From positions 864,001-928,000 of the forward strand of contig CM000430.1 of assembly GCA_000165345.1 (NCBI GenBank): a stretch of DNA of 64,000 bases. The letters are read 5' to 3'. The position numbers and the translations under genes were made by a program. Shown piece by piece: positions 6,072 through 48,915 of the stretch. The first letter of the stretch is position 1. Each line of letters opens with the position of its first letter. The notes under the pieces were generated by a model. It saw only the letters and a program-made list of their open reading frames with translations. It did no database searches and was not told the DNA's origin.

Positions 6072-6395
6072 TGTTAAAGATATTTCAAGGAGAAAAAAAA
6101 ATGAAGGAAGAAAAGTTTAGAATAAAAATAGTAAATTTAAAGTAAAGCTTTATATACCCCCAATTAATTAAAAAAAAAAAAAAGTCTTTACTCTTTTAAA
6201 TATTACTATTTATTCTTATTTAGTTGCATTTTTTATTTCTTTTCTTTCAGAAAAAAAAAGAAAATAGAAATAAAAATTTTTTATTTGATTATTCTTCAGT
6301 TATTATTATTACTATTTGCTTTATTCTCCTCACACCATTTTATTTATTAATACCGGTACTAATATTCTTTCGGCGCCTGTCCACAAAGTCTTTAA

Positions 6396-6440
6396 TGCAT
6401 GCATGAGTTGCAATTACGTGTAATTTGAGTGCATGCAAGT
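6396..6440. promoter_or_regulatory. TGCATGCA box cluster (TAATGCATGCATGAG ... GAGTGCATGCAAG) with a TTACGTGTAA core
   Basis: It lies in the divergent intergenic region between the RAD51-like gene and the CDK-like kinase gene, about 20 bp downstream of TTTCGGCGCCTG at 6369. Confidence 0.45.
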
Positions 6441-7969: not shown

Positions 7970-11695
<3,726 letters not shown>

Positions 11696-12338: not shown

Positions 12339-12419
12339 TGCATTGGCGCCAAGTTGTCATTATATTATTAATTCTTGTAATTAAAAAGAAAAAAATTGAG
12401 AAAATGTGGCGCCAATGCA
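12339..12419. promoter_or_regulatory. Inverted pair of E2F-like sites (TGCATTGGCGCCA ... 55 bp ... TGGCGCCAATGCA)
   Basis: The two 13-nt arms are exact reverse complements. They sit in the divergent intergenic region between the coiled-coil gene (minus strand, ATG at 11695) and ERH (plus strand, ATG at 12880). Confidence 0.55.
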
Positions 12420-12879: not shown

Positions 12880-13338
12880 ATGGCACAAAATCAAGGACTT
12901 CATACTCTTTTATTAATTCAATATTCGAATAATATTAGTACAAGATCTTATATGGATTATGACTCTGTATCTCAAGCTGTTGATGGTAAGATGAATTTCT
13001 TAATTTATAAATAATTTAATTAATACTTAAAAAAAATTTTTTATTTTTCATATATTTTCAGGAGTTTGTCAAATTTATGAACAAAGCATAAAATGTGCAT
13101 TTTCTAATTTAAAAGAAGTTACGTACAGCATTGAAGACTTAGTAAAATACATTAACTCACTTTATGATATATGCATGCTCACGTAAGTTAATAATACCTG
13201 AATTTTTGATTTTATGTATTATATATTACTTGATGAATTTTTAGTCGGGATGGAACAAATCGCAGATATATTCCTCACGATCGCAAGTGGATTATTGACC
13301 AGATTTATTTAAAAATGAAAAGAAGAGCAGCTAACTAG
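12880..13338 (+). CDS. ERH: Enhancer of rudimentary homolog (ERH), 3 exons
   Basis: Exons are 12880..12985, 13062..13182 and 13245..13338. Introns are 76 and 62 nt (GTAAGA..TTTTCAG and GTAAGT..TTTTAG). The spliced protein is MAQNQGLHTLLLIQYSNNISTRSYMDYDSVSQAVDG/VCQIYEQSIKCAFSNLKEVTYSIEDLVKYINSLYDICMLT/RDGTNRRYIPHDRKWIIDQIYLKMKRRAAN, 106 aa. It aligns along its whole length with ERH (TILLVQP..YADYESV..GVCKMYEEHLK..YDISQLFDFIDDLADLSCLVY..YNKDWIKEKIYVLLRRQA). Confidence 0.8.
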
Positions 13339-14101
13339 AAATTTAGATAGGAAATCAGAATAATAAATATTAGTATTTTCAATATATTATATATATATTC
13401 TATATTTTGCACATACTGAGTCTCTACAACCTTATAATAGTAATAGTAATAATATTAAAAATAATTATTATTATTATCATTATTGGCCTATTAAAATTCG
13501 GATTAATTAAATAATAAAACTTTATTGGTCATGAAAAATAAGATTATATTGATAACTAATATTAAAAAACAATTTACTCTTGCCATTATGCCTAATATTT
13601 CTAAATATACTTAATTTTTTCCATATTTATTATTATCATCTTTGCATGCATTCATTATTGTTATTATTTAATAATTTTCATGTGGATAAATTTTATTAAT
13701 TTCTGTACCGGCATAATAGTAATTACGTAATACCGGAGTGATAGTAAATTAATTGCATGCATTAAAAAAAAATTTTTTTGATTGCATGTGGATTTGAATT
13801 AAAAAAAATCATATCAAATATTAATAATAATAATAAATTATAAGTAATTGAAATGTCAAATTGATATAAAGCTGATTAAAGAGGGGCAAGAAAAGACTGA
13901 AATTTATTAAACAAATTTCAATATATATAAGAGAAAGATAAATTAGAGATAGAAAAGGAAAGAGGAGAGAAAAAAAACAAATTAAAGACTTGATTTTAGT
14001 AATAATACTATTATTGAAATAAAGAAAAACGTCTAATTTTTAAATAATAATATTTACATACAAATATATATAATATTTATTTATAATATAAATTTAATTT
14101 A

Positions 14102-18200: not shown

Positions 18201-18975
18201 CTTGGTGTTGTTGCTGGTGTTGTTGTTGCTGCTGGTGTTGGTGTTGTTGCTGGTGTTGGTGTTGTTGTTGCTGGTGATGTTGTTGATGATGTTGCTGATG
18301 ATGTTGTTGTTGATGATGTTGTTGATGATGTTGTTGTTGTTGGTGTTGGTGGTGTTGTTGTTGTTGGTGTTGTTGGTGTTGTTGTTGTTGTTGTTGGTGT
18401 TGTTGCTGATGATGTTGTTGTTGCTGACGTTGTTGTTGGTGATTCTGTTGTTGATGATGGCTTGGCTGTATCTTTTCTGGTTTATTATTCTTTGCATGGC
18501 TGGGTTTAGAATTGTCATCATTTCCTGTAATATAAGTGCTATTATTATTAGTAACATTAGAGTGTTGTCCCTTATCGGAGTTGTCTCTATGAGTACTATA
18601 ATATTGGTCTTTAACACCTCCATTGTTAACAGAGAAGTTTTTGTTAGAACTACTAACATTATTTACATGTTTATTGCTATTTAGACGTGGTTCGTTGTTA
18701 CTCATGTGTTCTTTATTTCCATTGTGATTGCTTACAATCTCATGAGAACTTTCACTCACATCCTTAGAACTCCTACTTATATTGCCATTCACGTGATTAT
18801 CATGCAAACCTCCGCCAGTACTTGCATTTGTGGATACATATCTGTTGTGTATTTTATCCTTTTCTTTGCCTATACTGCTCTTTTGAGCTCCATTCGTTGG
18901 TGACCTTTGAAAGGGACGCCTGAACTTTCGCTTCTTATCATTAGTATGACGCTCCTGTTGTTTCTCTGCCACCAT
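15268..18975 (-). CDS. MIF4G-domain protein (eIF4G-like) with a ~950-aa low-complexity N-terminal region
   Basis: 1235-aa ORF. The C-terminal ~250 aa carry a MIF4G-type HEAT-repeat motif (ELVKQVLDKAITEPDFSEMYADLCQILKWRSP...LHVLGIIRLIGELF...DPDEYAVECLCQLIMTTGYYLD). The N-terminus is S/N/G/H-rich, with a ~100-aa Q/H tract encoded by CAA/CAC/CAG repeats. Confidence 0.7.
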   Translation of the reverse strand: MVAEKQQERHTNDKKRKFRRPFQRSPTNGAQKSSIGKEKDKIHNRYVSTNASTGGGLHDNHVNGNISRSSKDVSESSHEIVSNHNGNKEHMSNNEPRLNSNKHVNNVSSSNKNFSVNNGGVKDQYYSTHRDNSDKGQHSNVTNNNSTYITGNDDNSKPSHAKNNKPEKIQPSHHQQQNHQQQRQQQQHHQQQHQQQQQQHQQHQQQQHHQHQQQQHHQQHHQQQHHQQHHQQHHQQQQHQHQQQHQHQQQQQHQQQHQGQNTTQHPKQVSQRQISSNFQQKHQTYSSSSHNSHHEGRYNQDRRGRGYGYSGNRQHNHGSSSGGGYDLNRKQPPPSSNSGGGAGGTLHNSQSKLNQHNKSQQQFQNGPSNNTAIENTTSISSEVVATSTSSKPANTTVISSTTNTSNITNVTPHTTTTKEEGGKHYSSQNNNGISTSRKDFHATPNRRGGGDSHYYGYGRQHGAREHSNYHQHKDSIGKGGSHGVNQKDNNDASLKESRTVLHKNFSNGKPGSGAAATTTTTTTTIIGSESEHNLTANVEQRQKNQPITQQQPQAQSQKPSHSQQSNNSDFAAEHKDMTKDDYSNTQKSNTDHNLRSNIPSNNHNQYSHNHNFSNNTGGSWKNQNGGDHTYGRHGRYSGPKNVGKGTNACNGGPNQNFVHPKHSTEGSGGHMYGQNAVGGTTSEDLKKKKNKKRFNKNLRNINNPSGGTNGGQMSTGHQVGGHPKERPKYVTGDQQKTHNGDVFSSASPNENESKNISNKAQSGVTQHPSNIEMSLEKGKSVDSRKKLSTASNESENTGSAKVTTGSDSMSNKLSCKGSEYLDGNNKSADFNINTNINESSIVAEKNDLKTNRDIEGREKLESSIPASDNKEGSSNNTGGSGNGNNITPTSSSSSSNSNSNSNSTSSSSSSSSGTSGVVGPWRRSLHGGQTVDSLETVRRAVKSLLNKITVEKFTVIAEKLAVCIDEIKNVDELEELVKQVLDKAITEPDFSEMYADLCQILKWRSPVLVNKDGKSTIAFSKALLARCEQEFKNMPRNMTPTDEEREKYDSEELAILYRKRKLHVLGIIRLIGELFIRKMFPMRSLNELVFDLVMIQENPDEYAVECLCQLIMTTGYYLDSNEKSQMIVDQWFGRLRELQNTSISTRLNCLIQDVFDLRKHKWVKKVHKQKAKALADILKDIDVEDVLGGAAIAAQYGSVVVVGERSNLVGNSAYYNYMTSQEELYISKQKSLQKQ
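18190..18470 (-). repeat. Imperfect (CAA/CAC/CAG)n coding trinucleotide repeat (poly-Q/H)
   Basis: The plus strand reads as tandem TTG/GTG/CTG triplets. These are the reverse complement of CAA/CAC/CAG and lie inside the MIF4G gene. Confidence 0.8.
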
Positions 18976-19970
18976 ATATCAATAAAAATCTGGGACAAAT
19001 TAATTTAAAAGGAATCAACACCCTTGTCAAATACGGGCATACAACACATACATTATTTATTAATTGCGTATGCTTACACCTTTTACCGTGGGGGGAGGAA
19101 TTTATAAATCTTCTAAAATTCCTAATGGGGGGCAGTCATAGGTACCTGTAATAATCAGATTAGACTTCACTTATTAATTCCAATTATTATAATATACGTA
19201 AAATTTCAATTTTTATTACTTATTTAATATATACGTATTTAATATATTTTTCTAATTATTTATTTATTAATTTATTACTATTTATTAATAAATTGAGCAA
19301 AATTCCCGCCCAAAGTAATATATTACGTGTATTTAAAAATATAATAAAATTAATAGTCCATATAAATTAAAAAAAAATTAATTAATAATATACAAGAACT
19401 CCCCTCAATTTTGTAGTGGTACTTTCCGCCAAATTTTGCGTGATCACAAGTCTACATTTGAATGACAGTACTATTACTAATTATATATTATCTTATTTTA
19501 ATAAGAACATAAGTACTATGATGAATTTATTTTATAAGAAGTTTGTGTTATTCAAAATTCTTTCTTTTTTCTTTCTCTCGATTTAAGTGGTACTTACTCC
19601 TCCCATAGATTTTTCAGTAAATCAACATTTTCCGAGTTTTTGCTGTATAATCTCTAAAAGTTATCAATAGTAATTCAGCCATTCTATTTTTAAACTTTTT
19701 TTTTAACATTCATTTCTACCAGTGATAAATTTAATACCCAATTAAAAATACCCGCCAAAGTTTTTGTCAATATTAATCAGATAACGATGGAATACTAGAA
19801 TTGAAGTATATTAAATGATAGTGGGAATTTTTGGCTATAGTTGTAATGATTAACTTCAACGATTTTATATTTTTAGAATTATTTATTTATATTTATCTAA
19901 CTCTAGTATTCAATAACCTATACTAAAAGATTCTTTACAATATATATCTTTGCTATAGCTAATGTATGTA

Positions 19971-20025
<55 letters not shown>

Positions 20026-29794: not shown

Positions 29795-29939
29795 CTATTA
29801 AGAAGGAACTAAATATACTTTAACGCTAAGAATATTATTAATAACTAGCATTTGGATCTAAAGCTAGGGGATCTGTTGTTAGGCCAGATACTATATAATC
29901 TTTCATTTATTGCTTTATTATTAATTATTGGAAAAGGTA

Positions 29940-31697
<1,758 letters not shown>

Positions 31698-32404
31698 ATG
31701 ATAATTTCAATAAAAATTATTAAAAGGGTAAATATGTGGCTTTATTTTTATGGCTTCAAACAACTATTGGCTAAAAAGTGAAACCTCTACTTTAGAACTA
31801 TTTTATTATAATTGCCTCAGATTGTTGGGATGTATAGTATTATTAGTTATTTACAAAAGAGTTAGGTGTTTTACTTTGCAAGTTGCTTTTGAGATAAAAC
31901 TCAAACAATATGAACATCTCAGGGCTTCTTTAATTTTTTTTTAAATTGTTTTGGGATTTTTTTTGTTTTAATTATTTACTTTCTCCATTAACTTTTCTTG
32001 GTTTCTGTTTTTTTGTGCCTATATTGTATTTACATGCGCATGCAATTTCATTGTTTGCTTGTTTTTAAAATTAAATTACGTGTTCGGGCGCCATACCCAG
32101 GAATTTATAAAGTAATTGCTTGTGGAAGGTTGGGTACAATATTGCCAAATAGAGGGGTTAAATTGTGAAAGAAAAAGATAAAAGAAAATGGGGTTCAGAA
32201 ATTTGATTTTTTGTTTCTAAACTTTGGAAAATTAGATAACAAAAAAAATAGTAAATTTTGAGCTACAAAATAAGAGTTTTTTTTCAAGTTGGAAGGAATT
32301 AACTTTTAGCCAACAGTAGAAAATAAGATTTAAAATTTGAAAGAAGATATTGAACAGAAGATAAATAAAGTTAATTTTAGTGAAGAAAAAATTAAGAAAA
32401 AAAT

Positions 32405-33754
32405 ATGAAGTCTTTAAAATTAGTATTAACAACATTTTTAGTGTTAACATTATCTCTCCTTGCAGGGTTCGTATTTGGGACTAATGAAAACCCTAATTTT
32501 TTGAGGCTTGTTTCAGATAAAAAGATGTATGATGAATGGCTCAAAACAATGACAGTAAGCGAGGAGATAATTTTGGAAAGATTTGGAAGCCTTCTTGAGA
32601 TTATTGACTTAGACAAAAATGGGCTTTTAGAAAAGGATGAACTGATTAAGTGGATAAAATTTGTATCAGAAAGATCAAGTTTAAAAGAAGTTGAAGCAGA
32701 ATTTAGAATTTTGGACAAGAATAAAGATGGTAAATTATCAAATGAAGAATTTATCAACCATTTTGTGTCTGAGAAAGATGAAAGTTCGAATAAAGAAATA
32801 ACAGAGCTGAATAACTTTTACCGTGAATTATTCAAGGAAGTAGATACTGATAAAGATGGATATTTAACAGTTGGAGAATATTACTATTTGACAAATTACT
32901 ATAGCTTATCAAAGGAATTATTTGTTAAGATAAATAGCTTTTTATCTCAGAATGATAAGAATGGTGATGGAATTATTGATATTGAAGAAATTAAACAGAT
33001 TCAAAAGGATAATGCTGAAGTTATTACAAATGACTCTGGTAAACTTGTTGTCTTTGGAGTTGATGTGTCTGGTGAGAAAGAGCTTTCTGTTAAGAAGATT
33101 ATCTTTTTATTAAGATCCCAAGAGATACAAGATGCAATCACAGAAGCATATAACCAGTTGATAGATGTATATAATACTAGAAAAGATGCAAAACCAGAGG
33201 ATTCTAAGTCTTCTTCAATCCCTATAGATTTTGTAAGATCCAATTACGTCATTTATATTCAATCAATATTAACAGATTATGGAGATGTTTTCAAATATCC
33301 ACACGATATTTTTGTTGGGGTTGATAACAAGGATTATGACTTATCAAAAGAAAAATGCACAGAATTATTTGGTGAAAATGAGAAATTTTCTGAAAAGTCC
33401 GATGAAGAAAATGAATTCGACACTGATGAATTTGACACTGATGATAATAATCCTAATGACGATGTTGAGATCTCAGATGATATGATTCAAAAGCTTATTT
33501 CTTTAATGGGCAATTCTGGACTTGGTGATATGGATGATAAAGGTGGTAGTATGTTTGATGTATTTGCTAGTAAGGCAGAAGGAGCAGAAGGTGGTGATCT
33601 AGCAGGTATGGAGGAGATTCTTAAAATGTTACAATCACTTATCGGCTCGAAAATGGGAGAGAATGACCATATTCCTGATGAAAATGAAACTTTAATTCCA
33701 GATCATGAAGATAATCAAGAATTTCCTTCGTTAGAAGCTAGAGATGAGTTATAA
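32405..33754 (+). CDS. ER-lumenal multi-EF-hand Ca2+-binding protein (CREC/reticulocalbin-like)
   Basis: The signal peptide is [25 protein letters not shown]. At least four canonical EF-hand loops are present: DLDKNGLLEKDEL, DKNKDGKLSNEEF, DTDKDGYLTVGEY and DKNGDGIIDIEEI. The acidic C-terminus ends in the KDEL-type retrieval signal ARDEL. Confidence 0.75.
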   Translation: MKSLKLVLTTFLVLTLSLLAGFVFGTNENPNFLRLVSDKKMYDEWLKTMTVSEEIILERFGSLLEIIDLDKNGLLEKDELIKWIKFVSERSSLKEVEAEFRILDKNKDGKLSNEEFINHFVSEKDESSNKEITELNNFYRELFKEVDTDKDGYLTVGEYYYLTNYYSLSKELFVKINSFLSQNDKNGDGIIDIEEIKQIQKDNAEVITNDSGKLVVFGVDVSGEKELSVKKIIFLLRSQEIQDAITEAYNQLIDVYNTRKDAKPEDSKSSSIPIDFVRSNYVIYIQSILTDYGDVFKYPHDIFVGVDNKDYDLSKEKCTELFGENEKFSEKSDEENEFDTDEFDTDDNNPNDDVEISDDMIQKLISLMGNSGLGDMDDKGGSMFDVFASKAEGAEGGDLAGMEEILKMLQSLIGSKMGENDHIPDENETLIPDHEDNQEFPSLEARDEL

Positions 33755-35940: not shown

Positions 35941-35974
35941 ATGGCGCCATCAAATCCGGTACCTAATACCGGTA
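35941..35974. promoter_or_regulatory. Composite ATGGCGCCAT, TCCGGTACC and TACCGGTA palindromes
   Basis: Three palindromic GC-containing motifs fall within 34 bp. They sit in the divergent promoter between the SF-assemblin-like gene and the 36220 gene. Confidence 0.45.
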
Positions 35975-36219
35975 TTAATATCAATGGAAATTAAAATTGA
36001 TAAATTGAAATTAATTTGCTGTATTGACCCAATCTTTTTTTAACTAAAGTTTAATTGGTTCTTAGGTACGGGTAATTGAAGAACAACGTTTATATTCAAT
36101 CTTAGTATACGATAAAAGAATTTTAAAGTGATAATATATTAAGAAAATAGTGAATTATTGTAACTATTTTTATTTCTTGATTAATATATTTTTAAAGAAA
36201 GAGGTCGTTATGAGAACAA

Positions 36220-36948: not shown

Positions 36949-37319
36949 TCCAAGGTTCTATGTTTAATCTTCCATTATAAATTATTTAATTAAAATAAAC
37001 TTCCACAATTATCACCGCATATTACTGGGTTTATAATAATATTTCTATGACTGTATATTGTTTTAACTTTATAGCATTTAAACTTTTTTTTTGAATTGCG
37101 TTTTATTTACTTGTTTCTTTTTAAATTTTTCTTCAATGTCTTTTTGAACATTATCTGCATTATATCGCTTAACAAATCGACTATTTTCCTTTGAAAGCAA
37201 AAATTATTTTTATTGCATTTTGAAACAATTAACTTTTCTCTTTTCCCTTAATCATAGAACCCAATTCTAATTGCACATGGCTTTGCATGCAATTATATTC
37301 AAAAAATGACACGTAAGAG

Positions 37320-37344
37320 GCGGCGCGCGCGCCACTATAAATAG
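37320..37344 (+). promoter_or_regulatory. 17-nt all-GC palindromic element (GGCGGCGCGCGCGCCAC) immediately followed by TATAAATA
   Basis: It lies 340 bp upstream of the ATG of the 800-aa gene at 37684. It is the only pure GC block in the window. It overlaps E2F-like GGCGCC/GCGCGC cores and is followed by a TATA box. Confidence 0.5.
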
Positions 37345-37683
37345 ATTTTGTCATGTCAAAGAATGGTTTGTGGGCGAAAAGAAAAAAAAATCATAAATTA
37401 CATTTTGCAGTAAGAGGTTATGTAGATAGCAGTTTTCCCAAAACTAAAGTATATTCTGTAGGATTTATGATTGAATAATGGATACGATATGTAAAAAAAA
37501 GAACAGAAACACAAAATTCTTCAAGTTTGTGTGAAAGTAATCAATTGGAAATAAAAAACTAAGAATTCTAATAGAAAAAGGTGGAATTACTGCTTGAGCC
37601 CAAAGTCTTGCATGCAGTTGAGTGGTAGATGATAAAAAAAATTATTATATAATTAAAATTTTTAATAAATTGTTGTAAAAAAA

Positions 37684-40086
37684 ATGTCAGCAGATAAAGA
37701 ATTATTTACCCTTGAGGGGTTTCAAAAAATGAAGTTAGCAACACAGAATAGAATAAATAAAGCAATAAATTCTTCGACTAACATTTTGGAATCTGTTAAA
37801 AGCTCATTTCATAAAGCTCCGAAGTCATATAAATTATTAGAATTAGTACCAGGTGCAATTGAAGCTCCAAAACGTGAAAGAGTCACAACAGAAGATTTAA
37901 CTATCGTAATTAGTGAAAAGTATTCATCTAGAGTAAATTCTAAACAGAATAACAAAAAGAAAGATTTAAAAATTAAGAGAGGAATAAATGGAATGATTAA
38001 GGATTGGAATATTATAGAAGGAAATGCAAATACTGAAATAAATAATGGAGATTCTGGATTTAAAGATTTTGTAACAGAAGCAAAAGCTGCAGAATTTGTG
38101 ATAAAATTTTTAGATAGAATGCAATCCAAAAAATATGCAATGAATTATGATAATGTTTCAATGCATGTAAAAGGTGAAACTCAATTAGACAGACAGTTAT
38201 CAGCATATCCACTATTTGTTTCTACAATTTCTCATGCTTCAATGGGTTTGTCAAATACCAGAAGAGATGGATCATTATATGATATTGTAGGTGGAGTTGA
38301 TCCAGGCTTGGGAACATTGATTGGTAATTTTAAAAATAATAAACAAATCTTTGATAGAAGCCCTCTTGTTCAATTATCTCAAGAATTAGAAAGAGATACT
38401 TTATTAGAAAAAGCACCATCTTGGTCATCAAAGTTATTACCAAGTATTGGAACAAAATTAGATTACCAAACTTTTGATGAAGAAAAAGCTCTTGGAGTAT
38501 ACAGTAAAGATAAAATTAATAAAGAATCTATAATGTTTAGACAATTTAGACAAAATCCATCAGCTGGAAGAATGGGTAAAAGATTTACAAGTTTAGAAGG
38601 TTCAAATACATTAATATTACAAAAAGATGATGTTTCCAATTTTGATGATACTCCAAATAATTCAAAAAACAAGAAATCTCAAGGGAATTTAAATTCATCA
38701 CTTCAAATTTTGACAGATTTGAATAAAATACCAACAAGATTTCCGTGGATATTAGAAGAATTACCTATAGCTCAATCTTTTAAGAATCAGTTTCTATTAT
38801 TTAATGAAAATTCATCTTTAAATAAAAGTGAATCAAAGGAGGAAAATGTTAAGAAAACATTTTATCAAAAAGCTAAGGGATTATCTAATTCTACTTTAAG
38901 GCAAGAAAATATAGTTAAAGCGATTGTTAGTAATAGAGGAATTGCAATGGTAAGAAATATTACAAATGTACCAGCAGATTCTAATCTGGAAGCATATTTT
39001 GATGAATTGGATGATAATAGTGATAATGATGAACGTTATTTATGGGAAGATGATCGAGAGAGAAAAAATCAACAAACAAAAGAAATTGGAGTACAAAAAT
39101 ATATGGAAGAAACATCTTTTGATACGGATTTTCAAAATAACGAACCAGATTTGGAATCATTAATGAAAGATTTGGAGATTCATTATAATCAAATAAAAAG
39201 TGAAAGGAATGAAAATAATTCACCAAAACAAGGAAATAACTGTCAATCTCCTCAAAATTTCCAATTCTCTTCTTCATTAGAAAATGATTCAAAAGATTTT
39301 AAAGATTTACATCATCCAGAAAATATACAAAAATCAAGTGGATCTGTAAATAATATTAAAGATAATGAATTAAATATAATGTTATTACAAGGTATGAATC
39401 CTTATTCAGGTCCAGAAATCAAGATTGAATATGATTTAAGCGAATTATATAATTCTGAGAGAAATTTATATAGAGGAGAAGGAATTGAAAAGACATGGAA
39501 AAGTTATTATGATTCATTAAAGAATTACCAAGATGCTGTTAATCAAAAGAAAGAATATATGGAAATGATTCATTATAACATGAGTCCATCAAGAAAGATT
39601 TTAAATGGATCTCAATCTAGAAAATCAAAAATTCCTAAATCATTTTTACCAATACATGAAAGTTTACAACAAGAAGATGATCCTCAAGAAGAATATTATA
39701 GTTTTGTTCAAGGACAGAGGATGATTAAAGAAAGTATTAATCAATTTCCAATACAAAGTCACACATCAGCTTATAAGACTGTTGGTGAGGACAATATTCA
39801 TCTTGTTGGTCCAAAATCTAGAGGTTATATTAGGGGATTAGCAGCCGTACGTGGAGGAAGAAGAATAAAACAAAGATTAATAGGTGATAGGAGTAATTAT
39901 GAAAATCAATTAAGATCAAGAAAAGAAGATCTTGGTTTTCTTAAATATACAGAAAAAGACCGTGAAGAATTTTTGGAACATGTTAGATATAATAATAAAA
40001 AGATTCAAGAAATGTATGAAATGGAAGATAAGTTTAATACAAAAGTAAGAATAGCATCCAGAGGTAGATTTAAGAAAATAAGATGA
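37684..40086 (+). CDS. Hypothetical protein, 800 aa, hydrophilic
   Basis: Uninterrupted 2.4-kb ORF. No motif recognised. The C-terminus is basic. Confidence 0.6.
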   Translation: MSADKELFTLEGFQKMKLATQNRINKAINSSTNILESVKSSFHKAPKSYKLLELVPGAIEAPKRERVTTEDLTIVISEKYSSRVNSKQNNKKKDLKIKRGINGMIKDWNIIEGNANTEINNGDSGFKDFVTEAKAAEFVIKFLDRMQSKKYAMNYDNVSMHVKGETQLDRQLSAYPLFVSTISHASMGLSNTRRDGSLYDIVGGVDPGLGTLIGNFKNNKQIFDRSPLVQLSQELERDTLLEKAPSWSSKLLPSIGTKLDYQTFDEEKALGVYSKDKINKESIMFRQFRQNPSAGRMGKRFTSLEGSNTLILQKDDVSNFDDTPNNSKNKKSQGNLNSSLQILTDLNKIPTRFPWILEELPIAQSFKNQFLLFNENSSLNKSESKEENVKKTFYQKAKGLSNSTLRQENIVKAIVSNRGIAMVRNITNVPADSNLEAYFDELDDNSDNDERYLWEDDRERKNQQTKEIGVQKYMEETSFDTDFQNNEPDLESLMKDLEIHYNQIKSERNENNSPKQGNNCQSPQNFQFSSSLENDSKDFKDLHHPENIQKSSGSVNNIKDNELNIMLLQGMNPYSGPEIKIEYDLSELYNSERNLYRGEGIEKTWKSYYDSLKNYQDAVNQKKEYMEMIHYNMSPSRKILNGSQSRKSKIPKSFLPIHESLQQEDDPQEEYYSFVQGQRMIKESINQFPIQSHTSAYKTVGEDNIHLVGPKSRGYIRGLAAVRGGRRIKQRLIGDRSNYENQLRSRKEDLGFLKYTEKDREEFLEHVRYNNKKIQEMYEMEDKFNTKVRIASRGRFKKIR

Positions 40087-40102: not shown

Positions 40103-43100
40103 TTATTTTAAAAAGATTCTAAGTAATAATTGTGTGGGATCAAGATCTAAAAAATTGGATTCTTGTGTATTAATTATATGATTTGGAATTAAATTTGAAT
40201 CCAAATTATTATTAATTATAATATTGGAATCTAAATTCATATTTTTTCTAATATGAGAGTTACCACCATAAGAAGATGAAGATGATGATGATGATATTGA
40301 GCTTCTCTTCCTTCTTTTATTGGATCTTTTTACTTTATCAAGATCATCTTCTTTTAAAAAATTATTTAATGATGATGTTTTTGAATTATTATTTTGAAAA
40401 ATAAATCTCTTATATTGAATATAATCATAAAGTATATCTTCAAAAGTATCTTGAATTAAACAATATTTAACTTTAACAAATGAAGAAGATGTAATATTAT
40501 TGGATCTTATTCTATATGCTCTGGAAATTGTCTGATTTTCAATTGATTCATCTGAAATTGGATCTAAAATATATATATTAGAAACACAAGATAAATCAAG
40601 ACCATGAGATCCAATATCAATACTTAATAACAAAACAGGAAATTTATTATTAATTTCTTGAATATTATTACTATCATCTTTCTTAAAATTTGAAATGGAT
40701 CTTTGTAATTCTGATTTAGGTATATGTGGATAATATCTACAAGTTCCTATATTAAATAATATAGTTAAAGTATAATATAAAAAATCTAATTGTTGCCATA
40801 AACTTGAAACAATCATTATTTTAATCTTTGGATTCTCTTCAATATCTTTTAAAATACAATGAAGAATATATCTTAATTTTGAACTTGATAAAGAAATTAA
40901 TCCTATTGAAATTAATGGAATATTTTGATAAATATCAATAAAAGGTAATAATGAATTTCCAAAAGAATGAATATAATTATAGAGGTAATTATTAATATTA
41001 TTAACAGTAATATCTGTAAATTTCTGATATAATTCCAATATATTTTTTTCAATTTCATTGGATTTATAATTTTTTGTTAATAAAATTTTTAATTGAGTTA
41101 TTAATGGGAAATTAAATAATGGAATAATATTATTATATTCTTTATAGTTTGATATTAAACAAGAATTTGGAATTGAACTTGAACTTGAACTTGAGCTTGA
41201 ACTTGAACCTGAATTTGAAATAGAATTATCATTCTTTAATTCAATATGAGAAATTTGAATTGGTACTTGAAGTCTATCAAAAAAATCAGAATTTATTTGT
41301 ATATTTTCTCCACAAACAATACAGAATTTTATAGGTCCTCTTTTAGTCCAATATAATTTCTTTTTTGAATTATTACAATTTTTTGAAATATTAAGATTAA
41401 CATGTATTGGAATATATCCATGTTTTTCCATTATACAATATGTACAAACCAAATGTAATTTAGGGCATGGAATAATTAAAGGAAATAAAAGTATTTCATT
41501 ACACGAATCACAATTATAATAATTAAAAGAATTTGAAGATTGTGGTGATGATAATTTTATATTAGTAAAGTAATCCAATACAAATTCCATTCTTAAAGTT
41601 GATTCTATTTGATAAAAATGATCATTTTCATAATTTGGATGTTTATTTTCAAACATCAATCTTAATTCTTGTATATCTTTCATTGATACTGAAATATATG
41701 GAATTGATAAATTCATATTTTTTATTAATTGTAATTTATTATCATCCAAAATAAAATCTTTAATATTCATAGTAAATCCAAGTATTGAAGCAAATCTAAA
41801 ATTCCAAATAACTTCTTGACGATAATTAAGATTACAAGGATGTAATAAAGAATCAATATTATCTTGGCTGAAATATGTACAAAATAAATTTCTTTGAGTT
41901 AATTCACATATTATATTATATATATAAAATTCATTATCAATAAAAGGCTGAATAACTTTTTTAATAGGTCCAATTAAATTAGGAAGATAATTACGTAAAC
42001 ATTGATTTTTTTGATTTAATACAATAATTGAAGCAATTTGAGTAAATATTGTAAAAATTCCAATAGGAGAAAGTTTCCCATTAATGGATGATTTACTAAT
42101 AAGTTTTAAAATTGAATAATTATTTGAATTATTACAATAATTAATTTGGGATGATTCTTGTATTGATTTTAAATTTGTATTATTATCATCATTGTTATAA
42201 GATCTTCTGGAATTTCTTATAGATTCTTGTTCATAATTACGTGTTTTATCACAAATTATGGGTAATTGTAAGAATTTGAGAATATTTGGAATATTTGTGT
42301 TAATTGATTTTATTATAGAAATTGGTAAAGGTGTGCCAGACATAATCCATTTAAATTCAGATTTTATTTTGAATATGAATTGTTGATAAAGAGTTGAGGA
42401 TATTTCAGAATTTCCGATATTATGTCCTTCATCAATAATTAGTCTAAGCCATTTAATTCTTAGAATTGGGCTCATTTCTTGTCTAAAAAATGGATCTTTC
42501 AAATCTTGTTTAATATCTTTATTGTTTTGATTTTTTCCTTTAGTATTTGTAAGAAAAGCTCTCTTATATTTTTGTTTAACTTTACATAGCTGAAATTGTT
42601 TAGTAAGCATTCTATAAGATAATATTACAGCTTTAGCTTGAGCCAAAATATATGGTTCAATTATTTCATCCTTGGATGGATCATCAAATAAATAGATTAG
42701 AATATCATGGTTAGAATCATGACTTTTATAATTATGTGGGTATATTCTTTTATTGGTTGATATAGATTTTTTAGAATGATTATTACTATTATAAGTAACA
42801 ATAACATCAGTTTTGTACCACTTTTTAATTTCTTCAATCCAATGTTGAATAAGATGATTTGGTACAATAATTAAAGTAGCTCCAGTTGGAATAAGATCGG
42901 AATTTTTGTTTATAACATTATTTTGATATAAATATTGTGAATTACTTTCATCTTGTGTAGAGATATTAACTAGTTTAATAGGAGAAGTTTTATGACTAAT
43001 CATAAAGTTAATTCCCAATTCTGGTTGGTTAATTTTATAAAGCAAATCTTTGACTCCAAATGGATATTCAAAATAAGAAGTTCCATCATCTTTATGTATA

Positions 43101-44533
43101 TTAGAAACTTTATTGGAAGTCTTACTTATAAGTGATAATACTGTAAGAGTTTTTCCAAGTCCTGGTTCATCACAGAAGATTCCTCCTTTTGTTTGAGAAT
43201 ATTCTTGTTCTCTAAATTCATTTCGTGATTTTGGACAAAATCCTAAATGGATTATTTTATTTGTATGGTTTATATATAAAGCAATACTAGATTTTCTTTG
43301 AAAAACTTGATAAGAAATATTAGAGGCCAGAAATTTGGGGTGAATTTTAATACCCATTAGATAATTTTGATTATTATCCCATATAATCTTTTCCAAATGT
43401 TGAGAATTGACTATTTGAGAAACATCACTTATTCTTAAATAGTGCCATATTGATAGATACTTAAATATATCTTCAGAAGAAGTTAAATATCTAATTGGAT
43501 TTTCAAATAACCAATGACCTTCTCCAGAATGTGATTCACGTTCTAATAGCCAAGTTACTGATCTTCTTTGATGAGGAAGTAAGTTATTTCTGTGGTATAT
43601 TAGCCAAATATATTTGAATGATTTGTTTAATATAGAAACCTGAGAGAGAGAATTATTATCTAGAAAATCAAAAATCTTCCACCAAATTTCGATTGGAATT
43701 TTAATATTCAAATATTGATGGATATATCCTTCACTTCTTAAAACTGATGCAATAACATCAGTTTTTTCATTTTCATGTTGATTTTCGTCAAAATTACTTA
43801 TGGAAAGTAATTCTTTACTCAAATAATTCATGACATTTCTGATAGATAACCCATTTATCAATTCTGAAGTAAATTCTAAATGTTCAACACAATTAAGTAC
43901 TTTGCATGTTGAATAGCAAAAACTCTCTATTACTTTATTCTCAATTGGAGCTTCTTCAATTCTTGATTGATTCTGAGAATCCAAAGATATTGATGAAGTT
44001 AGATCTGAAAATAAGTCTCCTTGAATCACTAATTTTTTGAATAAATCCAAAAGTAATTTTCTTTTTTCATCAAATTCTAAAGAAAATGTACTTTTTAAAT
44101 GGGATATAACTTCGCAAGTTATTCCACTATTACTTAAAGTAAAAATCCCTCTTTTACAATTATAACTTGTAATAAAATTTACTCCAAAATTATACCATAC
44201 ATATATCTTTACTCTCTTTACTTTATTTATCTCTTTTTCTTCTTCAAATTCTATTTGTGGAAACAAATTTTTCAGCTCTTGAGTGAATTCACTTTCAGCT
44301 TCAACAAAAGAGTCGAATTTAATTCCATCACAAATTCTTAATAAGTTTGACCAAATACTTTCTTTAAAAGAATATAATTCACTTTCAGAATCATTTTCTT
44401 TTCCAGCTTTATATAATAAATCATTTAAATCACTAATCCAAAATGAATATCCAATTTTATTCAACAAAAGCTCATTGCATTTTGAACCTAATCCTCCAAG
44501 CAAAACCCACCTATCTTTTGAATCAACATTCAT
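40103..44533 (-). CDS. SNF2-family DNA-dependent ATPase with an N-terminal F-box-like motif and a RING-like Cys cluster inserted between the helicase lobes (RAD5/RAD16/SHPRH-like)
   Basis: 1476 aa. The F-box-like motif is IPIEIWWKIFDFLDNNSLSQVSILNKSFKYIW. SNF2 motif I is CDEPGLGKTLTVLSLI and motif II is LIIDEGHNIGN. The Cys cluster is CDSCNEILLFPLIIPCPKLHLVCTYCIMEKHG...CIVCGENIQ. The C-terminal helicase lobe reads LLLSIDIGSHGLDLSCVSNIYILDP...QTISRAYRIRS. Confidence 0.75.
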   Translation of the reverse strand: MNVDSKDRWVLLGGLGSKCNELLLNKIGYSFWISDLNDLLYKAGKENDSESELYSFKESIWSNLLRICDGIKFDSFVEAESEFTQELKNLFPQIEFEEEKEINKVKRVKIYVWYNFGVNFITSYNCKRGIFTLSNSGITCEVISHLKSTFSLEFDEKRKLLLDLFKKLVIQGDLFSDLTSSISLDSQNQSRIEEAPIENKVIESFCYSTCKVLNCVEHLEFTSELINGLSIRNVMNYLSKELLSISNFDENQHENEKTDVIASVLRSEGYIHQYLNIKIPIEIWWKIFDFLDNNSLSQVSILNKSFKYIWLIYHRNNLLPHQRRSVTWLLERESHSGEGHWLFENPIRYLTSSEDIFKYLSIWHYLRISDVSQIVNSQHLEKIIWDNNQNYLMGIKIHPKFLASNISYQVFQRKSSIALYINHTNKIIHLGFCPKSRNEFREQEYSQTKGGIFCDEPGLGKTLTVLSLISKTSNKVSNIHKDDGTSYFEYPFGVKDLLYKINQPELGINFMISHKTSPIKLVNISTQDESNSQYLYQNNVINKNSDLIPTGATLIIVPNHLIQHWIEEIKKWYKTDVIVTYNSNNHSKKSISTNKRIYPHNYKSHDSNHDILIYLFDDPSKDEIIEPYILAQAKAVILSYRMLTKQFQLCKVKQKYKRAFLTNTKGKNQNNKDIKQDLKDPFFRQEMSPILRIKWLRLIIDEGHNIGNSEISSTLYQQFIFKIKSEFKWIMSGTPLPISIIKSINTNIPNILKFLQLPIICDKTRNYEQESIRNSRRSYNNDDNNTNLKSIQESSQINYCNNSNNYSILKLISKSSINGKLSPIGIFTIFTQIASIIVLNQKNQCLRNYLPNLIGPIKKVIQPFIDNEFYIYNIICELTQRNLFCTYFSQDNIDSLLHPCNLNYRQEVIWNFRFASILGFTMNIKDFILDDNKLQLIKNMNLSIPYISVSMKDIQELRLMFENKHPNYENDHFYQIESTLRMEFVLDYFTNIKLSSPQSSNSFNYYNCDSCNEILLFPLIIPCPKLHLVCTYCIMEKHGYIPIHVNLNISKNCNNSKKKLYWTKRGPIKFCIVCGENIQINSDFFDRLQVPIQISHIELKNDNSISNSGSSSSSSSSSSSIPNSCLISNYKEYNNIIPLFNFPLITQLKILLTKNYKSNEIEKNILELYQKFTDITVNNINNYLYNYIHSFGNSLLPFIDIYQNIPLISIGLISLSSSKLRYILHCILKDIEENPKIKIMIVSSLWQQLDFLYYTLTILFNIGTCRYYPHIPKSELQRSISNFKKDDSNNIQEINNKFPVLLLSIDIGSHGLDLSCVSNIYILDPISDESIENQTISRAYRIRSNNITSSSFVKVKYCLIQDTFEDILYDYIQYKRFIFQNNNSKTSSLNNFLKEDDLDKVKRSNKRRKRSSISSSSSSSSYGGNSHIRKNMNLDSNIIINNNLDSNLIPNHIINTQESNFLDLDPTQLLLRIFLK

Positions 44534-45510
44534 TTCTCATGTTAACTGCTTCTATTTGTTTAAATCTGCTTAAATAATAACTTTAAGTCTTTTAATCTGT
44601 GAATTCTAGATACCTGTAATTCACGACCAATACATTGAATTTCATCAAAAACAAAATTATGAAAATAAACTTTAAAAAAACCCGTGTTTCTTTCTCTATA
44701 AATATCTTTGCCTTTTACTATACTGCCTTTCTGAATTATAATAACAATAAGTAATAATTCCAGAATTCTTTTGACTCAATTTGAAATATTAACCTTTAAA
44801 TGTTTTGGCGCCATGTCATTTTGACATTAACATTTGTAAGAATTACTATAAATATTGTTAGTATTATTATTGTTACAATTAATTCATTATTCCAACTTTT
44901 AATTCGTGAATTCAAATAAATTTCTTTAATTTAGTTGATTGAATGTCTTTTTAACTTTGTTATATTATTTTCAAAATGTTCTTAAACTTTTCCTTAACAT
45001 GTAACAATTTTGTTATAACTTTAAAATTAATTTAATAATTTAATTAAATGAAATTAACTCATTAATGTATTTTTATTTGTAATTGAAATTATAAATGAAG
45101 AATAGTATTGCTTGCAAAAATTGATTATTTATTGCTTCACGAACTTTCAACATAAAATTCAAGATTATTCACTATGTCAAATCAATAAAAAGTAGAAAAA
45201 GCTTCTCTCTTGAATTTTGTTCATATCTCCATTTATTAAATAATAATAACAATAATATTAATAGGAATCATATATAACTATTGAATACAATTTTTAAAAA
45301 AATTATATATATAATAAACCAAAATTATAATACTAAAACTAATAGAATATTTATGTACACAAAATTTGCATGCAACCCTATCTCTCTAATGTAACATTGC
45401 ATGCAAATTTCGATTTTTTGTTAATAATGACACGTAATCAATTATAATGACCTCCCCACACTTGGCGCCCAATGAATTATTCGGGTAATTTTAATATTGC
45501 AATAATTATT

Positions 45511-45552
45511 ATCAAAATCTTATAATAGTGATCACTATTATAAGATTTTGAT
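45511..45552. repeat. Perfect 42-bp palindrome (ATCAAAATCTTATAATAGTGATCACTATTATAAGATTTTGAT)
   Basis: The sequence equals its own reverse complement. It sits about 50 nt downstream of the stop codon of the minus-strand lipase gene. Confidence 0.95.
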
Positions 45553-45603: not shown

Positions 45604-48069
45604 TTATTTTCTCCTGGATCCATACTTGATATTACGAATAGTATCCTTGATAGCTTTTTCTAGAAAATTCATATGCTTAATTCTCATAACATGTGGCCAT
45701 GTTCTCCTTTCACCTTCAGTTATAAAGTGAAGCATATCATCATATGACGGATGATTAATACACCTATACCAATCAAAAAGGGATACTCTTGGAGTAATAG
45801 TAACATGACCTTCAATTTCTTGTAACATCCAAAAATTGCTAACATCTTTTCCAAATAACTTTGGAATTAATTTCAGTTTTGCTAATTTAGTATACCTATA
45901 TTTAATATCTAAAGTTAACCAATTTAAAACATTATGTAAAAATGTTCGCTCTGGGTGAATTATGCTTGTATTTATTGGATTTACTGAAACAAAAGGTACA
46001 TGATGTGGGTTTACTTGTGATACAATAAATTGTCGTACATTAAATAATGTTGATAACTCTTTATGTGGTATATCTTGAGAAATTGATCCATCCATCCATT
46101 TCATTCCTGGTGGAAAATATCGGATTATTTTATTGGTATGATTTTCTTTTGCAAATAATTCTGCTACTGGCATTAATCCTGGTAATGCACAAGAAGCTGA
46201 AACTGCACTCCAAAGTAAAATATCTGGAGTAGTAATACAATTTAAAACTAATGGTTCAGTAAATTCTGGAGTTACATAAGTTGGACTCACTGTTATTGTT
46301 ACTATTCTTCCTGTTAATTTATATGCTTCATAGAATGTATAATTCTTAAAGTAAGTCTGACAAGTCTTAATAAATTCTTTTGGATCTATCATATAACCTT
46401 TTACTAGGAAATGACGGATCTGATCTAATAATGGAGGAAACCAACGATGACCATGCATATTTGAAACTGTTGGTTTAATATATTCGTTTAAAATCTCTTC
46501 ATTACTTTTTGTTGCAAGTATTGCTGCAACAATTGAACCTCCACTTGTGCCATTGATTATTTTTGGCATTATATCTTGTTCTAATAAAACTTTAACAACA
46601 CCCAAATGATACATTGCTAAAGCTCCTCCTCCACTTAAGCATAAAGCAGTTTTGCCTGTTGAATGCCCTAAAAGTTCTAAATAATGAATTAAGCTATTAC
46701 TTGCTAACGAGCCTTCACTTTTTGAAAATGTTAGAACTGATCCAGTACCTGTTTCAAAGCTAAATTGGCTCATATAATTCTTTCTTACTTTATTTTCATA
46801 GTAATAACCCCAATCAGAATTCCATCTATCACTACCATCCTTTGAAATATTAAACCCACTATCGATCGCTTGTAAATCATTATCATACTCCTTACAATGA
46901 CATTCTTTATTAATACCGGAATTTAATTCGTCTTTATTTACTTTATTTTCTTCATTATTTGCCAAACATTTTTCACATGTTTGAATAGAAACATTCTTTG
47001 ACATATTCTCCATTCTAAACTCTGATAAAGAAGAAATTGAAGTATTCATTAAATCTCTATTTTTTAAAGATATTCTACCAGATGAACTTTTATTATTCAT
47101 TCTTCCTGTGCTTGAAAGCTCTTGCTCATTACTAGTCAAGTAAAGATTTTTTGTCTCTTCTTTAATTGAATCACTATTCGAGTTTTCCTTTTCTTCCTCT
47201 AAAAGCCTTTCTATATCATCAAAATCAAAACCTTCATCGCCATCTTCCATACTGAAATTCATTGAATTTTCTTCTATTTCCTTATTGAATAATGAACTAC
47301 TTGAATAAATACTTGATTGTTTTGAGAAGCTTATCAATCTTTCTATTGAATTTGATCTTGAATCCTGATCAGAAGAAAGTTTATATGTATTTCTATCACT
47401 TAAAGCATTCTCAAGTTCTATTGAAAGTTCTGGAGATTTTGAACACATTGTCAAAAACTTTAATACATTCTCAATCTCATCCTCAAATTCATCTATTAGA
47501 ATCTTTGTACCAGAAAACGCTTTGTTATATAATGCTTGTTTTGATATTGACGCAAAATTCCTATCGCAACACCATCTTAATAGAAATACCAATTTCTTCA
47601 AATTATTGTTCTTTCTTGCTTCTTTCAACCTAGTTATATACTCCTTTAAATAAATCCATTGATAATCATCAGTCTCCTCAACTGATCTCCATTCATATCC
47701 ACCACAAATCTCATCCAATTTAGTACCAATATTAAACCATTCATCATAACTATTTGATTGTTCTAATCTGTAATATAGTTCATCTCTTGCTGTATGGAAA
47801 CTTCTAATCCATAAACTTAATCTTAATAATAAACTTGACCATATAAATAGTATAATATTTATTGATATTCTAAATATATGATATAATCCCAGCATTACCC
47901 TCCCAAACGAAAATAGAAATGAGCCCAATAACCATAAGCACCATGTCATCCATATTAATGCATATTGTCTAATTCTTGCATTAATTAAAATCAATAATGC
48001 AAATGTTGTTAAAAAAGTTGTTGAAAATATCAAATGGACCAAAAATATTACCAACCATGTACTAATCAT
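45604..48069 (-). CDS. Patatin-like triacylglycerol lipase (SDP1/TGL4 family)
   Basis: The N-terminus has transmembrane helices. A DUF3336-like region follows (YDEWFNIGTKLDEICGGYEWR). The patatin domain carries the oxyanion motif LCLSGGGALAMYHLGVVKVL and the GxSxG motif INGTSGGSIVAA. The first ATG on the minus strand is at 48069; the ORF track extends to a TTG at 48090. Confidence 0.8.
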   Translation of the reverse strand: MISTWLVIFLVHLIFSTTFLTTFALLILINARIRQYALIWMTWCLWLLGSFLFSFGRVMLGLYHIFRISINIILFIWSSLLLRLSLWIRSFHTARDELYYRLEQSNSYDEWFNIGTKLDEICGGYEWRSVEETDDYQWIYLKEYITRLKEARKNNNLKKLVFLLRWCCDRNFASISKQALYNKAFSGTKILIDEFEDEIENVLKFLTMCSKSPELSIELENALSDRNTYKLSSDQDSRSNSIERLISFSKQSSIYSSSSLFNKEIEENSMNFSMEDGDEGFDFDDIERLLEEEKENSNSDSIKEETKNLYLTSNEQELSSTGRMNNKSSSGRISLKNRDLMNTSISSLSEFRMENMSKNVSIQTCEKCLANNEENKVNKDELNSGINKECHCKEYDNDLQAIDSGFNISKDGSDRWNSDWGYYYENKVRKNYMSQFSFETGTGSVLTFSKSEGSLASNSLIHYLELLGHSTGKTALCLSGGGALAMYHLGVVKVLLEQDIMPKIINGTSGGSIVAAILATKSNEEILNEYIKPTVSNMHGHRWFPPLLDQIRHFLVKGYMIDPKEFIKTCQTYFKNYTFYEAYKLTGRIVTITVSPTYVTPEFTEPLVLNCITTPDILLWSAVSASCALPGLMPVAELFAKENHTNKIIRYFPPGMKWMDGSISQDIPHKELSTLFNVRQFIVSQVNPHHVPFVSVNPINTSIIHPERTFLHNVLNWLTLDIKYRYTKLAKLKLIPKLFGKDVSNFWMLQEIEGHVTITPRVSLFDWYRCINHPSYDDMLHFITEGERRTWPHVMRIKHMNFLEKAIKDTIRNIKYGSRRK

Positions 48070-48915
48070 TGTCAGATGTATTACATGCAAACAATATTAC
48101 ATGCTTACATGCATGTGGATAAAATTAATATTTATATATAATATATAATAATAATAATATAACCAGCTTCTTCAATTAATTTTCCACACCTTTTATACAA
48201 TACTTGGATCTGAGTTAAGGATTTGAAGTTATTTCACAAAGCTTGTAAAAGTAATAGAAATAATTTAATTATTTTTATTATTTTGTTTTTTTTTTACCAT
48301 TTTACTTAATAAATTTATATATACAATTTAATGTATAGCTCCAAACTCATTAATTTAGTATTTTAGGGAGTACTTGTTTTACCAATTCTTAGATTAGCAA
48401 ATATAGGAAAATATAACTACCCTTAATCAAGTTATTTTGGGGAAAAATAAAAAGAAAAAACTGATTATAATTTTTTTTTTTAAATTTTTAATTTAATTTT
48501 TGTGTCAATTTTTAAATGCAATTTCCCCACATGCCATTTATTTTTCTTCCTCGCTTACGTGAAAAAAAAAATTCATTGCACATGTACCGCGCAAACTACT
48601 AAATAAGCCAAAGAATTAATTAAAATAATTAATACGTGTAATATTATATTTATTTATTTATAATTGGAACAAATTTCAGTCAAATACCTAGTAAATCCAG
48701 ATTTAATTCAATATTTCTATGACCCACAGGTTAATGGAAGCTTGAATCTATTTGGATTTGTTGGAAAGGACATTTTGAGGGAATATTGTATTAAATCTAG
48801 AAATCCACTTGAGGAAATTAGAATTAAAAAATAAAATAAAATAATAATATCAATAATAATAAATCAAGAGAATCAAATTTCCTTGGTCACCAAATTATCA
48901 AATTATTTTTTGTTG

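Follow-up and report, generated by a model that had tools for sequence, protein, structure and literature searches.

The E2F, AP2_1 and G-box motifs of Cryptosporidium parvum are well described (Oberstaller 2013; PMC4117751; 2025 review), and they are the closest local points of comparison for the element considered here, a short ACGT-core sequence in a 64,000-nucleotide stretch of C. parvum chromosome 2 (GCA_000165345.1, contig CM000430.1, positions 864,001 to 928,000 of the forward strand; hereafter the window). E2F/DP sites correspond to upstream motifs 3 and 4 of Oberstaller 2013, DTTGSCGCCH and TTTGGCGGGAAV (see also Bankier 2003). The AP2_1 motif family is described in PMC3734150; its motif TGCATGCA is bound by cgd2_3490, cgd1_3520, cgd8_3230 and cgd5_4250, the G-box G.GGGG by cgd8_810 and cgd2_2990, and CACACA by four C. 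parvum AP2 domains (PMC4117751). A 2025 preprint on polycistrons and the assay for transposase-accessible chromatin with sequencing (ATAC-seq) gives E2F and poly-T motifs only, and one non-CCAAT bZIP is recorded for C. parvum (PMC3734150; text search in 2013). Within the window, which has a GC content of 27%, TGCATGCA occurs 12 times and GGCGCC 13 times, nearly always between genes, an abundance that is typical of the genus Cryptosporidium.

ACGT-core bZIP elements are known from plants, fungi and animals, and include the G-box CACGTG, the G/A hybrid CACGTA, the C-box/CRE TGACGTCA and the PAR/Yap-type element TTACGTAA. The sequence described here shares with them an invariant ACGT centre flanked by variable half-sites (CAC-GTAA, CAC-GTCA, CAC-GTGG and TTAC-GTAA), independence of orientation, and a position within promoter clusters. 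The ACGT centre is invariant at all conserved sites and variants of the window, and the half-sites, which differ from site to site, resemble the halves of G-, A-, C- and PAR-boxes. TTACGTAA at 13723 is palindromic and ACACGTAA is a hybrid, while TGACACGTCA of other species is palindromic only when a 2-nt centre is allowed. TGACACGT is not a CRE, because two extra bases separate TGAC from GT. Read from the sequence, the element is a candidate transcription-factor binding site in flexible, multi-motif promoter modules, and we put the probability of this reading at roughly 0.68.

Neither the ACGT core nor the 12-mer in which it was first noticed is an E2F site. AP2_1 and G-box motifs are present and conserved within the ACGT-core modules, as footprints separate from the core; the 12-mer has no TGCAT and does not belong to AP2_1, whose sites are neighbouring footprints. 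The ApiAP2 motif CACACA and the AP2_2 motif GCACAC have an ACAC run in common with TGACACGT, but the CGT conserved here is absent from CACACA, and TTACGTAA and TCACGTAAG lack ACAC altogether. No ApiAP2 domain binding an ACGT-core sequence is mentioned in the text portion of PMC4117751. Likewise, none of the 25 consensus motifs (11 families) given in the International Union of Pure and Applied Chemistry code by Oberstaller 2013 includes an ACGT or fits either TGACACGT or ACACGTAA; an ACGT-core motif is also missing from the portions compared of the 2025 review (its motif table) and of Mullapudi 2007 (its text); and Oberstaller 2014 and Campbell 2010 contain no relevant ACACGT, CACGT or ACGTG, matches elsewhere being to primers only. 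The ACGT-core element is a candidate for an additional motif beside E2F, AP2_1 and G-box, of which a prior description is possible.

A conserved 8-mer within a repeated 12-mer

A preliminary description of the window drew attention to the 12-mer AATGACACGTAA, found at two places next to an E2F-like core, and proposed a composite cis-module made of an ACGT-core bZIP/bHLH-like site plus E2F. Both copies are exact (37305-37316 and 45426-45437, each on the + strand; sites B and C in Table 1), and a third copy with one mismatch, AATTACACGTAA, lies on the - strand at site A. Matches with at most one mismatch thus number 3 in the window, against 0.22 expected from shuffles. At site B the 12-mer is followed by GA, a G/C run (GGCGGCGCGCGCGCC), AC and TATAAATAG. 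This is the layout first given, except that GA intervenes before the GC block, and that the run of pure G/C is 15 nt long, the 17 nt originally counted having taken in the trailing AC. The block is indeed unique, GCGCGC occurring at this one spot in the window, and the first copy does stand upstream of the gene for an 800-amino-acid protein, cgd2_4030, ending 367 nt before its ATG (37684). At site C, CTTGGCGCC begins at 45461, 23 nt past the 12-mer, rather than 25 bp on at 45462. This copy is upstream of the SNF2 gene, as claimed, but 893 bp from the ATG (44533), in an orientation toward SNF2 opposite to that of the first copy toward cgd2_4030, and only 166 bp beyond the stop codon of a patatin gene.

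The exact repeat on which the original proposal leaned is unremarkable as a post-hoc find, because 379 12-mers with at least four G/C (strand-collapsed) are repeated in the window, compared with 163 +/- 19 in first-order Markov simulations. Nor is the identity of the 12-mer kept in orthologous DNA of other species: its equivalent at site B is ATTGACACGTAA in C. ubiquitum and ACTGACACGTGG / TGACACGTGG in C. canis, and at site C it is TGACACGTCAT in all three other species aligned. Since the 12-mer varies among species and TGACACGT does not, the conserved unit is the 8-mer TGACACGT. The A/T flanks shared by the two 12-mers are a C. parvum-specific coincidence, and the signal beyond chance lies in cross-species conservation and placement, not in 12-mer identity. 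As judged from these alignments, the 12-mer is a chance-level extension of a short ACGT-core element (TGACACGT / ACACGTAA), or more broadly of (A)CACGT with ACGTAA variants.

Two identical 12-mers, both near TGCATGCA motifs, could also be the remnant of a duplicated segment or mobile element that carried the 12-mer. Yet local alignment of the +/-150 bp flanks gave a score of 18, against 13.1 +/- 1.9 (maximum 20) for shuffles, and each site is conserved in place among orthologues. We rejected such an origin, the flanks being no more alike than shuffled controls, and regard it as having next to no likelihood. A splicing signal was a further candidate: A-ATG-ACA-C followed by GTAAG could represent a start codon, a 7-nt first exon and a donor common to two genes, and site B does have an ATG and then a canonical GTAAG, with TTTTGCAG about 95 nt downstream. 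However, the ATG of site B is replaced by TTG in C. ubiquitum and by CTG in C. canis, and that of site C by TTG in all three other species; instead of GTAAG, C. canis has GTGGT, and GTCAT stands at site C. An ATG is lacking altogether at sites A, D and E, and site C is directed away from the SNF2 gene. With neither ATG nor GTAAG conserved, the mini-exon was also rejected, and is very improbable.

Conservation of the ACGT core among species

To compare the window with other genomes, orthologues were located via the SNF2 protein and a 1241-amino-acid protein encoded at 7970-11695, and syntenic loci +/-10 kb were taken from C. meleagridis, C. ubiquitum, C. canis, C. xiaoi, C. ryanae, chipmunk genotype I, C. 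muris, C. bovis and C. felis. Gene order is conserved in all of them. At site B, the four species referred to are C. parvum, C. meleagridis, C. ubiquitum and C. canis. TGACACGT stays unchanged at sites B and C alike in the corresponding intergenic sequence of C. meleagridis, C. ubiquitum, C. canis and chipmunk genotype I. The orthologous intergenic alignments consist of discrete conserved footprints amid diverged, indel-rich DNA, and at both sites the core forms a conservation island of its own, with variable or gapped columns between it and the neighbouring motifs. It is kept in C. canis although the locus has shifted there to 44% GC. (The locus has 46% GC in C. felis, versus 26-29% in C. parvum, C. 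meleagridis, C. ubiquitum, C. xiaoi and C. muris.) C. canis is a useful footprinting partner because it is GC-rich and yet retains short promoter motifs.

We then ranked hexamers by conservation in two syntenic blocks of about 24 kb, aligned whole and containing 12.9 kb of C. parvum non-coding DNA. A hexamer copy was scored as conserved if invariant in all aligned species, which gave a background of 3.7% over 1601 hexamers. The E2F hexamers TGGCGC (8/11 invariant) and GGCGCC (5/7) ranked first and second; GTAAGT (4/5), from intron donors inside the nominally non-coding set, third; ACACGT fourth, with 4 of 6 copies invariant (p = 2.7e-5); the G-box hexamer TGTGGG (4/7) fifth; and the AP2_1 hexamer TGCATG (6/30) sixth. 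The p value for ACACGT is uncorrected because the hypothesis was a prior one; Bonferroni correction over all 1601 hexamers gives about 0.04. In frequency, ACACGT is only weakly over-represented in non-coding DNA (7 observed versus 4.5 expected, 1.6x, p = 0.17), and CACGTAA is more clearly so (7 versus 1.7, 4.1x, p = 0.002). Both are strongly depleted in coding DNA, and the density of ACACGT is 2-40x higher in non-coding than in coding DNA of C. meleagridis, C. ubiquitum, chipmunk genotype I and C. canis. Finally, ACGT cores lie nearer to E2F-like hexamers than do random positions of the same intergenic regions (Fisher combined p = 0.0013), which upholds the association with E2F-like sites that had been claimed.

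Could the core simply be carried along by its neighbours? In that case the repeat would be coincidental, ACACGT would be conserved only via the E2F, AP2_1 and G-box blocks around it, and the core would bind nothing. The abundance of 12-mer repeats and the mere 1.6x excess of ACACGT are as expected from this, all conserved copies are within 40 bp of a known motif, and published motif finders have not reported the element. On the other hand, the separate conservation islands at sites B and C, the invariance of four of six copies against the 3.7% background, the presence of the core at the independent sites E, F and 13723, and its survival of the GC shift in C. canis speak against it. We consider chance and hitch-hiking together an unlikely account of the element as a whole.

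Organisation of the promoter modules

The window contains at least six modules in which an ACGT core lies 3-38 bp from an E2F-like site, usually together with TGCATGCA or a G-box (Table 1). The core is found in either orientation, and the AP2_1 and G-box motifs, 15-60 bp from it, are partners that the preliminary description missed (the G-box as TGTGGGG or CCCCACA). In four of the six modules (A, B, D and E), the distance to the start codon is 327-375 bp, and it is similar in orthologues. Each module is a cluster of discrete conserved footprints, 60-130 bp in extent, with one or two ApiAP2-bound TGCATGCA motifs, the ACGT-core element, often a G-box TGTGGGG, an E2F/DP-type site (GGCGCC, GCGCGCGCGCC, GGCGGGAA or CCGCGCAAA) and, in some cases, an A/T-rich TAAATAG-like stretch. 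What stands of the composite cis-module is a conserved ACGT core beside E2F-like sites upstream of genes; the exact 12-mer as its unit does not, and neither does a rigid pairing with E2F, as both spacing and orientation vary.

Table 1. Components of the ACGT-core modules, with identified neighbouring genes (positions in the window)
Feature	Position	Strand	Conservation or remark
Site A, AATTACACGTAA, core at 6416	6414-6425	-	TACACGTAATTGCA invariant in 5 species
Palindromic variant TTACGTAA, then TACCGG	13723-13736		TTACGTAATACCGG kept in 4/5 species; TGCATGCA at 13643 and 13754
Site E, TACACGTAAT and E2F-like GGGCGGGAA	19303-19331	-	ACACGTAATA kept in 4/5 species
Site D, ATTACGTGTT (ACACGTAAT on -), core at 32078	32075-32093	-	ATTACGTGTT..GGCGCCA invariant in 4 species
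Site B, AP2_1-type TGCATGCA	37284-37291		TGCATG kept in 4 species
Site B, core TGACACGT	37307-37314	+	invariant in C. parvum, C. meleagridis, C. ubiquitum and C. canis; flanks vary
Site B, GC block GGCGGCGCGCGCGCC, overlapping E2F-like cores	37319-37333		GCGCGCGCG invariant in 4 species
Site B, TATA-like TATAAATAG	37336-37344	+	AAAATAGATTTT kept in 4 species
Site B, G-box-like GTTTGTGGGCG	37366-37376	+	GTTTGTGGG invariant in 4 species
Site B, block AAATTACATTTTG	37395-37407	+	invariant in 4 species
Site C, TGCATGCA pair	45367-45374, 45398-45405		TGCATGC, both largely kept in 4 species
Site C, core TGACACGT	45428-45435	+	invariant in 4 species
Site C, G-box CCCCACA (TGTGGGG on -)	45454-45460	-	CCCACA invariant in 4 species
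Site C, E2F-like GGCGCC	45464-45469		CGCC alone invariant; intact in C. ubiquitum, altered in C. meleagridis and C. canis
Site F, G-box TTTCCCCACA, core CTTACGTG (CACGTAAG on -), E2F-like CCGCGCAAA	48522-48595		TCCTCGCTTACGTG invariant in 4 species
cgd2_3990, EF-hand	32405-33754		
cgd2_4040, SNF2	40103-44533	-	
cgd2_4050, patatin	45604-48090	-	

The GC partners fit the E2F/DP family, and are predicted E2F/DP sites. GGCGGCGCGCGCGCC, TTGGCGCC, GGGCGGGAA, GGCGCCA and CCGCGCAAA all conform to it, and the core [C/G]GCGC[G/C] with T/A-rich flanks is matched by GGCGGCGCGCGCGCC, by cTTGGCGCCcaa at 45461-45472, by GGCGCCA at 32087 and by TTCCCGCCC at 19303. The site B block fits the consensus [A/T][C/G]GCGC[G/C][A/T], differing from the usual 8-mer in being a longer, (GC)n-extended palindrome. 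As noted above, these partners are among the most conserved hexamers; they lie upstream of genes and are constrained, the site B block being invariant and the GGCGCC of site C partly so. The intergenic region of C. xiaoi orthologous to site B contains TTGGCGCGCGCGCGCC. TATAAATAG may serve as a TATA box or mark the start site.

Site A is placed between two divergent genes, with some 345 bp to the ATG of each, and has its core between TGCATGCA motifs at 6396 and 6430 and with GGCGCC at 6372 and TACCGGTA at 6351. Site D, 327 bp upstream of the cgd2_3990 ATG, has its core only 2 nt from GGCGCCA and inverted relative to site B. The site E core, TACACGTAATA at 19325 on the - strand, has an invariant GGCGGGAA about 12 bp away; in C. 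canis the core's place is taken by a TACGTGT at a distance of about 75 bp. At site F the core (48554-48561, conserved copy at 48556) sits between the G-box and CCGCGCAAA, and the equivalent in both C. xiaoi and C. ryanae is ACACGTAAGCGAG, accompanied by a G-box and GCATGCA.

Two other palindromes recur in the window. TACCGGTA and its TACCGG half-copies recur in promoter modules (6351-6358, 35967-35978, 13706-13711 and 13731-13736); AGTACCGGTA at 6351 is invariant in 5 species, the 12-mer TACCGGTATTAA is common to 6347 and 35967, the latter adjoining TGGCGCCA at 35942, and three of the seven TACCGG copies were conserved in the hexamer scan. TACCGGTA/TACCGG may be a further uncatalogued motif. 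Twin TGGCGCCA palindromes at 12344-12351 and 12407-12414, 63 bp apart and each beside ATGCA(T/A), are kept in 5 species.

Because the modules lie some 330-375 bp upstream of start codons and C. parvum has no map of transcription start sites, the conserved blocks might instead belong to long 5' untranslated regions or unannotated non-coding RNAs, acting by RNA structure, an upstream open reading frame (uORF) or a protein-binding site. Many C. parvum non-coding RNAs are annotated, antisense long non-coding RNAs (lncRNAs) start near gene 3' ends, and site C is close behind the patatin stop codon. However, where genes stand in tandem the core can point either way with respect to the downstream gene (compare sites B and D), and neighbouring footprints are palindromic DNA-binding motifs followed by a TATA-like stretch. 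RNAalifold found no supported structure in the site B block (-8.3 kcal/mol over 146 columns, covariation term -0.19), and Rfam matched nothing, either over the whole window or in 18800-19400. No lncRNA matching by gene id or sequence appears in the available part of the PMC7840661 supplement (Li et al. 2021), a comparison too partial to be informative. Since sites B (core forward) and D (core inverted) have the core in the same place between AP2_1 and E2F, recognition as DNA rather than RNA is indicated, and we hold an RNA-level element to be quite improbable.

Site C and the probable SNF2 promoter

With the nearest downstream ATG 0.9 kb off, SNF2 is an uncertain target of site C. A closer candidate exists for the SNF2 gene: TTTGGCGCCATGTCATTTTGAC at 44804-44825, which combines an E2F-like palindrome (44804-44815) with TGTCA..TGACA, lies 271 bp upstream of the SNF2 ATG and is kept in every species compared here, even in C. 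xiaoi and C. ryanae, which are distant. From its position and conservation, TTTGGCGCCATGTCATTTTGAC, rather than site C, is probably the proximal SNF2 promoter. Antisense lncRNAs of C. parvum as a rule begin close to the 3' ends of genes, downstream of E2F and AP2_1 motifs (PMC7840661). Site C is just past the patatin 3' end, where such transcripts typically start, so that a distal, bidirectional or antisense promoter is conceivable there. A perfect 42-nt palindrome, ATCAAAATCTTATAATAGTGA joined to TCACTATTATAAGATTTTGAT (45511-45552), also stands between site C and the patatin stop codon (45604); C. meleagridis retains part of it, C. ubiquitum and C. canis lack it, and it may be a 3'-end hairpin.

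Mode of action and candidate factors

In the binding-site reading preferred here, a sequence-specific transcription factor would bind the ACGT core as double-stranded DNA and act with E2F/DP and ApiAP2 proteins in a billboard-type promoter, in which spacing and orientation are free. The arrangement is not a rigid bipartite site, because the spacing to the E2F-like site is variable. The core itself is present, conserved, clustered with other motifs and independent of orientation. That a protein binds it, and with an effect on transcription, we infer from this pattern, as we do the kind of factor. A bZIP-type protein is plausible by analogy: about one third of our expectation goes to a dimeric factor of the ACGT-core type, for instance the one non-CCAAT bZIP recorded, another third or so to an ApiAP2 domain with a specificity not yet captured, and the rest to something else. 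The bHLH alternative raised in the preliminary description finds no footing, as the E-box CACGTG is absent from the C. parvum module sites, which have CACGTA; its sole occurrence in the window, at 18790, is in coding sequence, and among the aligned species only C. canis reads CACGTG at site B.

Several observations weigh against a role as a binding site. The raw over-representation of ACACGT is weak, and the sample is small (46 kb aligned, six copies of the hexamer and a Bonferroni p of about 0.04), and some copies inside already conserved promoter blocks may possibly have hitch-hiked. Published de novo motif searches and ATAC-seq peak analysis do not report the element in the portions compared. 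The distance of site C from the next start codon makes its target uncertain. Simple co-expression of the downstream genes is not indicated either: in limited expression data, the two genes compared, cgd2_4030 and cgd2_3990, fall into different expression clusters (44 and 119). Finally, the element is absent at site A in C. felis, C. bovis and C. muris, and at site E in C. bovis and C. muris; ACACGT and CACGTAA are absent at sites B and C in C. xiaoi; and at the place equivalent to site C, C. ryanae retains only TGCACGTAAAA, adjoining GCATGC. At site F, the element is retained in the distant C. xiaoi and C. ryanae. To judge from the alignments, the losses in distant species are consistent with binding-site turnover or with a lineage-restricted element.

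A bolder form of this proposal is that (A)CACGT(AA) is an uncatalogued cis-regulatory motif of the intestinal Cryptosporidium clade, bound by an orphan factor (the non-CCAAT bZIP or an unassigned ApiAP2) that acts with E2F/DP and ApiAP2 in a conserved promoter grammar. Its enrichment being mild, for all its strong conservation, it would have escaped over-representation finders. We advance it tentatively, as a possibility that is rather less likely to be right than wrong.

Genes and other conserved features of the window

Gene identities were fixed in two ways. First, exact-sequence look-ups identified the 800-amino-acid open reading frame (37684-40086, +) as the C. parvum protein cgd2_4030, and the 1476-amino-acid SNF2 frame (40103-44533, -) and a kinase frame (6757-7953) likewise as C. 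parvum proteins. Second, the Myb gene at 29928-31697 is cgd2_3980 according to a table of the 2025 review, which fixes the identities of cgd2_3990, cgd2_4040 and cgd2_4050 (Table 1). Fully conserved GTAAGT hexamers at 13183, 14321, 14562 and 21674, in DNA classed as non-coding, indicate intron donors of small spliced genes that are invisible as long open reading frames; the ER (PF01133) gene and a 186-amino-acid gene in the orthologous loci are examples.

Directly upstream of the ATG (18975) of an MIF4G/eIF4G-like gene, about 190 nt (18976-19167, -) are almost 100% identical in C. parvum, C. meleagridis, chipmunk genotype I, C. ubiquitum and the GC-rich C. canis, and are thus far more conserved than typical coding DNA. 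The stretch includes a short uORF-like ATG and a hairpin, GGAATTT...AAATTCC, between C-runs. RNAalifold shows a few compensatory changes in this hairpin, where variation is too low to judge, and the stretch has no Rfam match. For the eIF4G-like gene, it may represent a 5' leader with structure, a uORF or an intron signal. In the DS/MIF4G intergenic region (region E, -), a long (TA)n microsatellite at about 19900-19980 is present in C. parvum only; the (TA)n run of C. ubiquitum is another one, located farther on.

Implications

How Cryptosporidium regulates its genes is still poorly understood. Few cis-elements are catalogued (AP2_1, AP2_2, G-box, E2F, GAGA, CAAT and some of unknown nature), and for most of the predicted DNA-binding proteins no site has been assigned. 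If the reading of the ACGT core as a binding site is true, it adds a component to the promoter grammar and a target for de-orphaning a transcription factor. The finding is incremental rather than paradigm-changing. Phylogenetic footprinting over the Cryptosporidium genomes now available can find elements that methods based on expression clusters or over-representation miss, and it has defined compact conserved promoter cores of about 100 bp, which could serve in transgene design.

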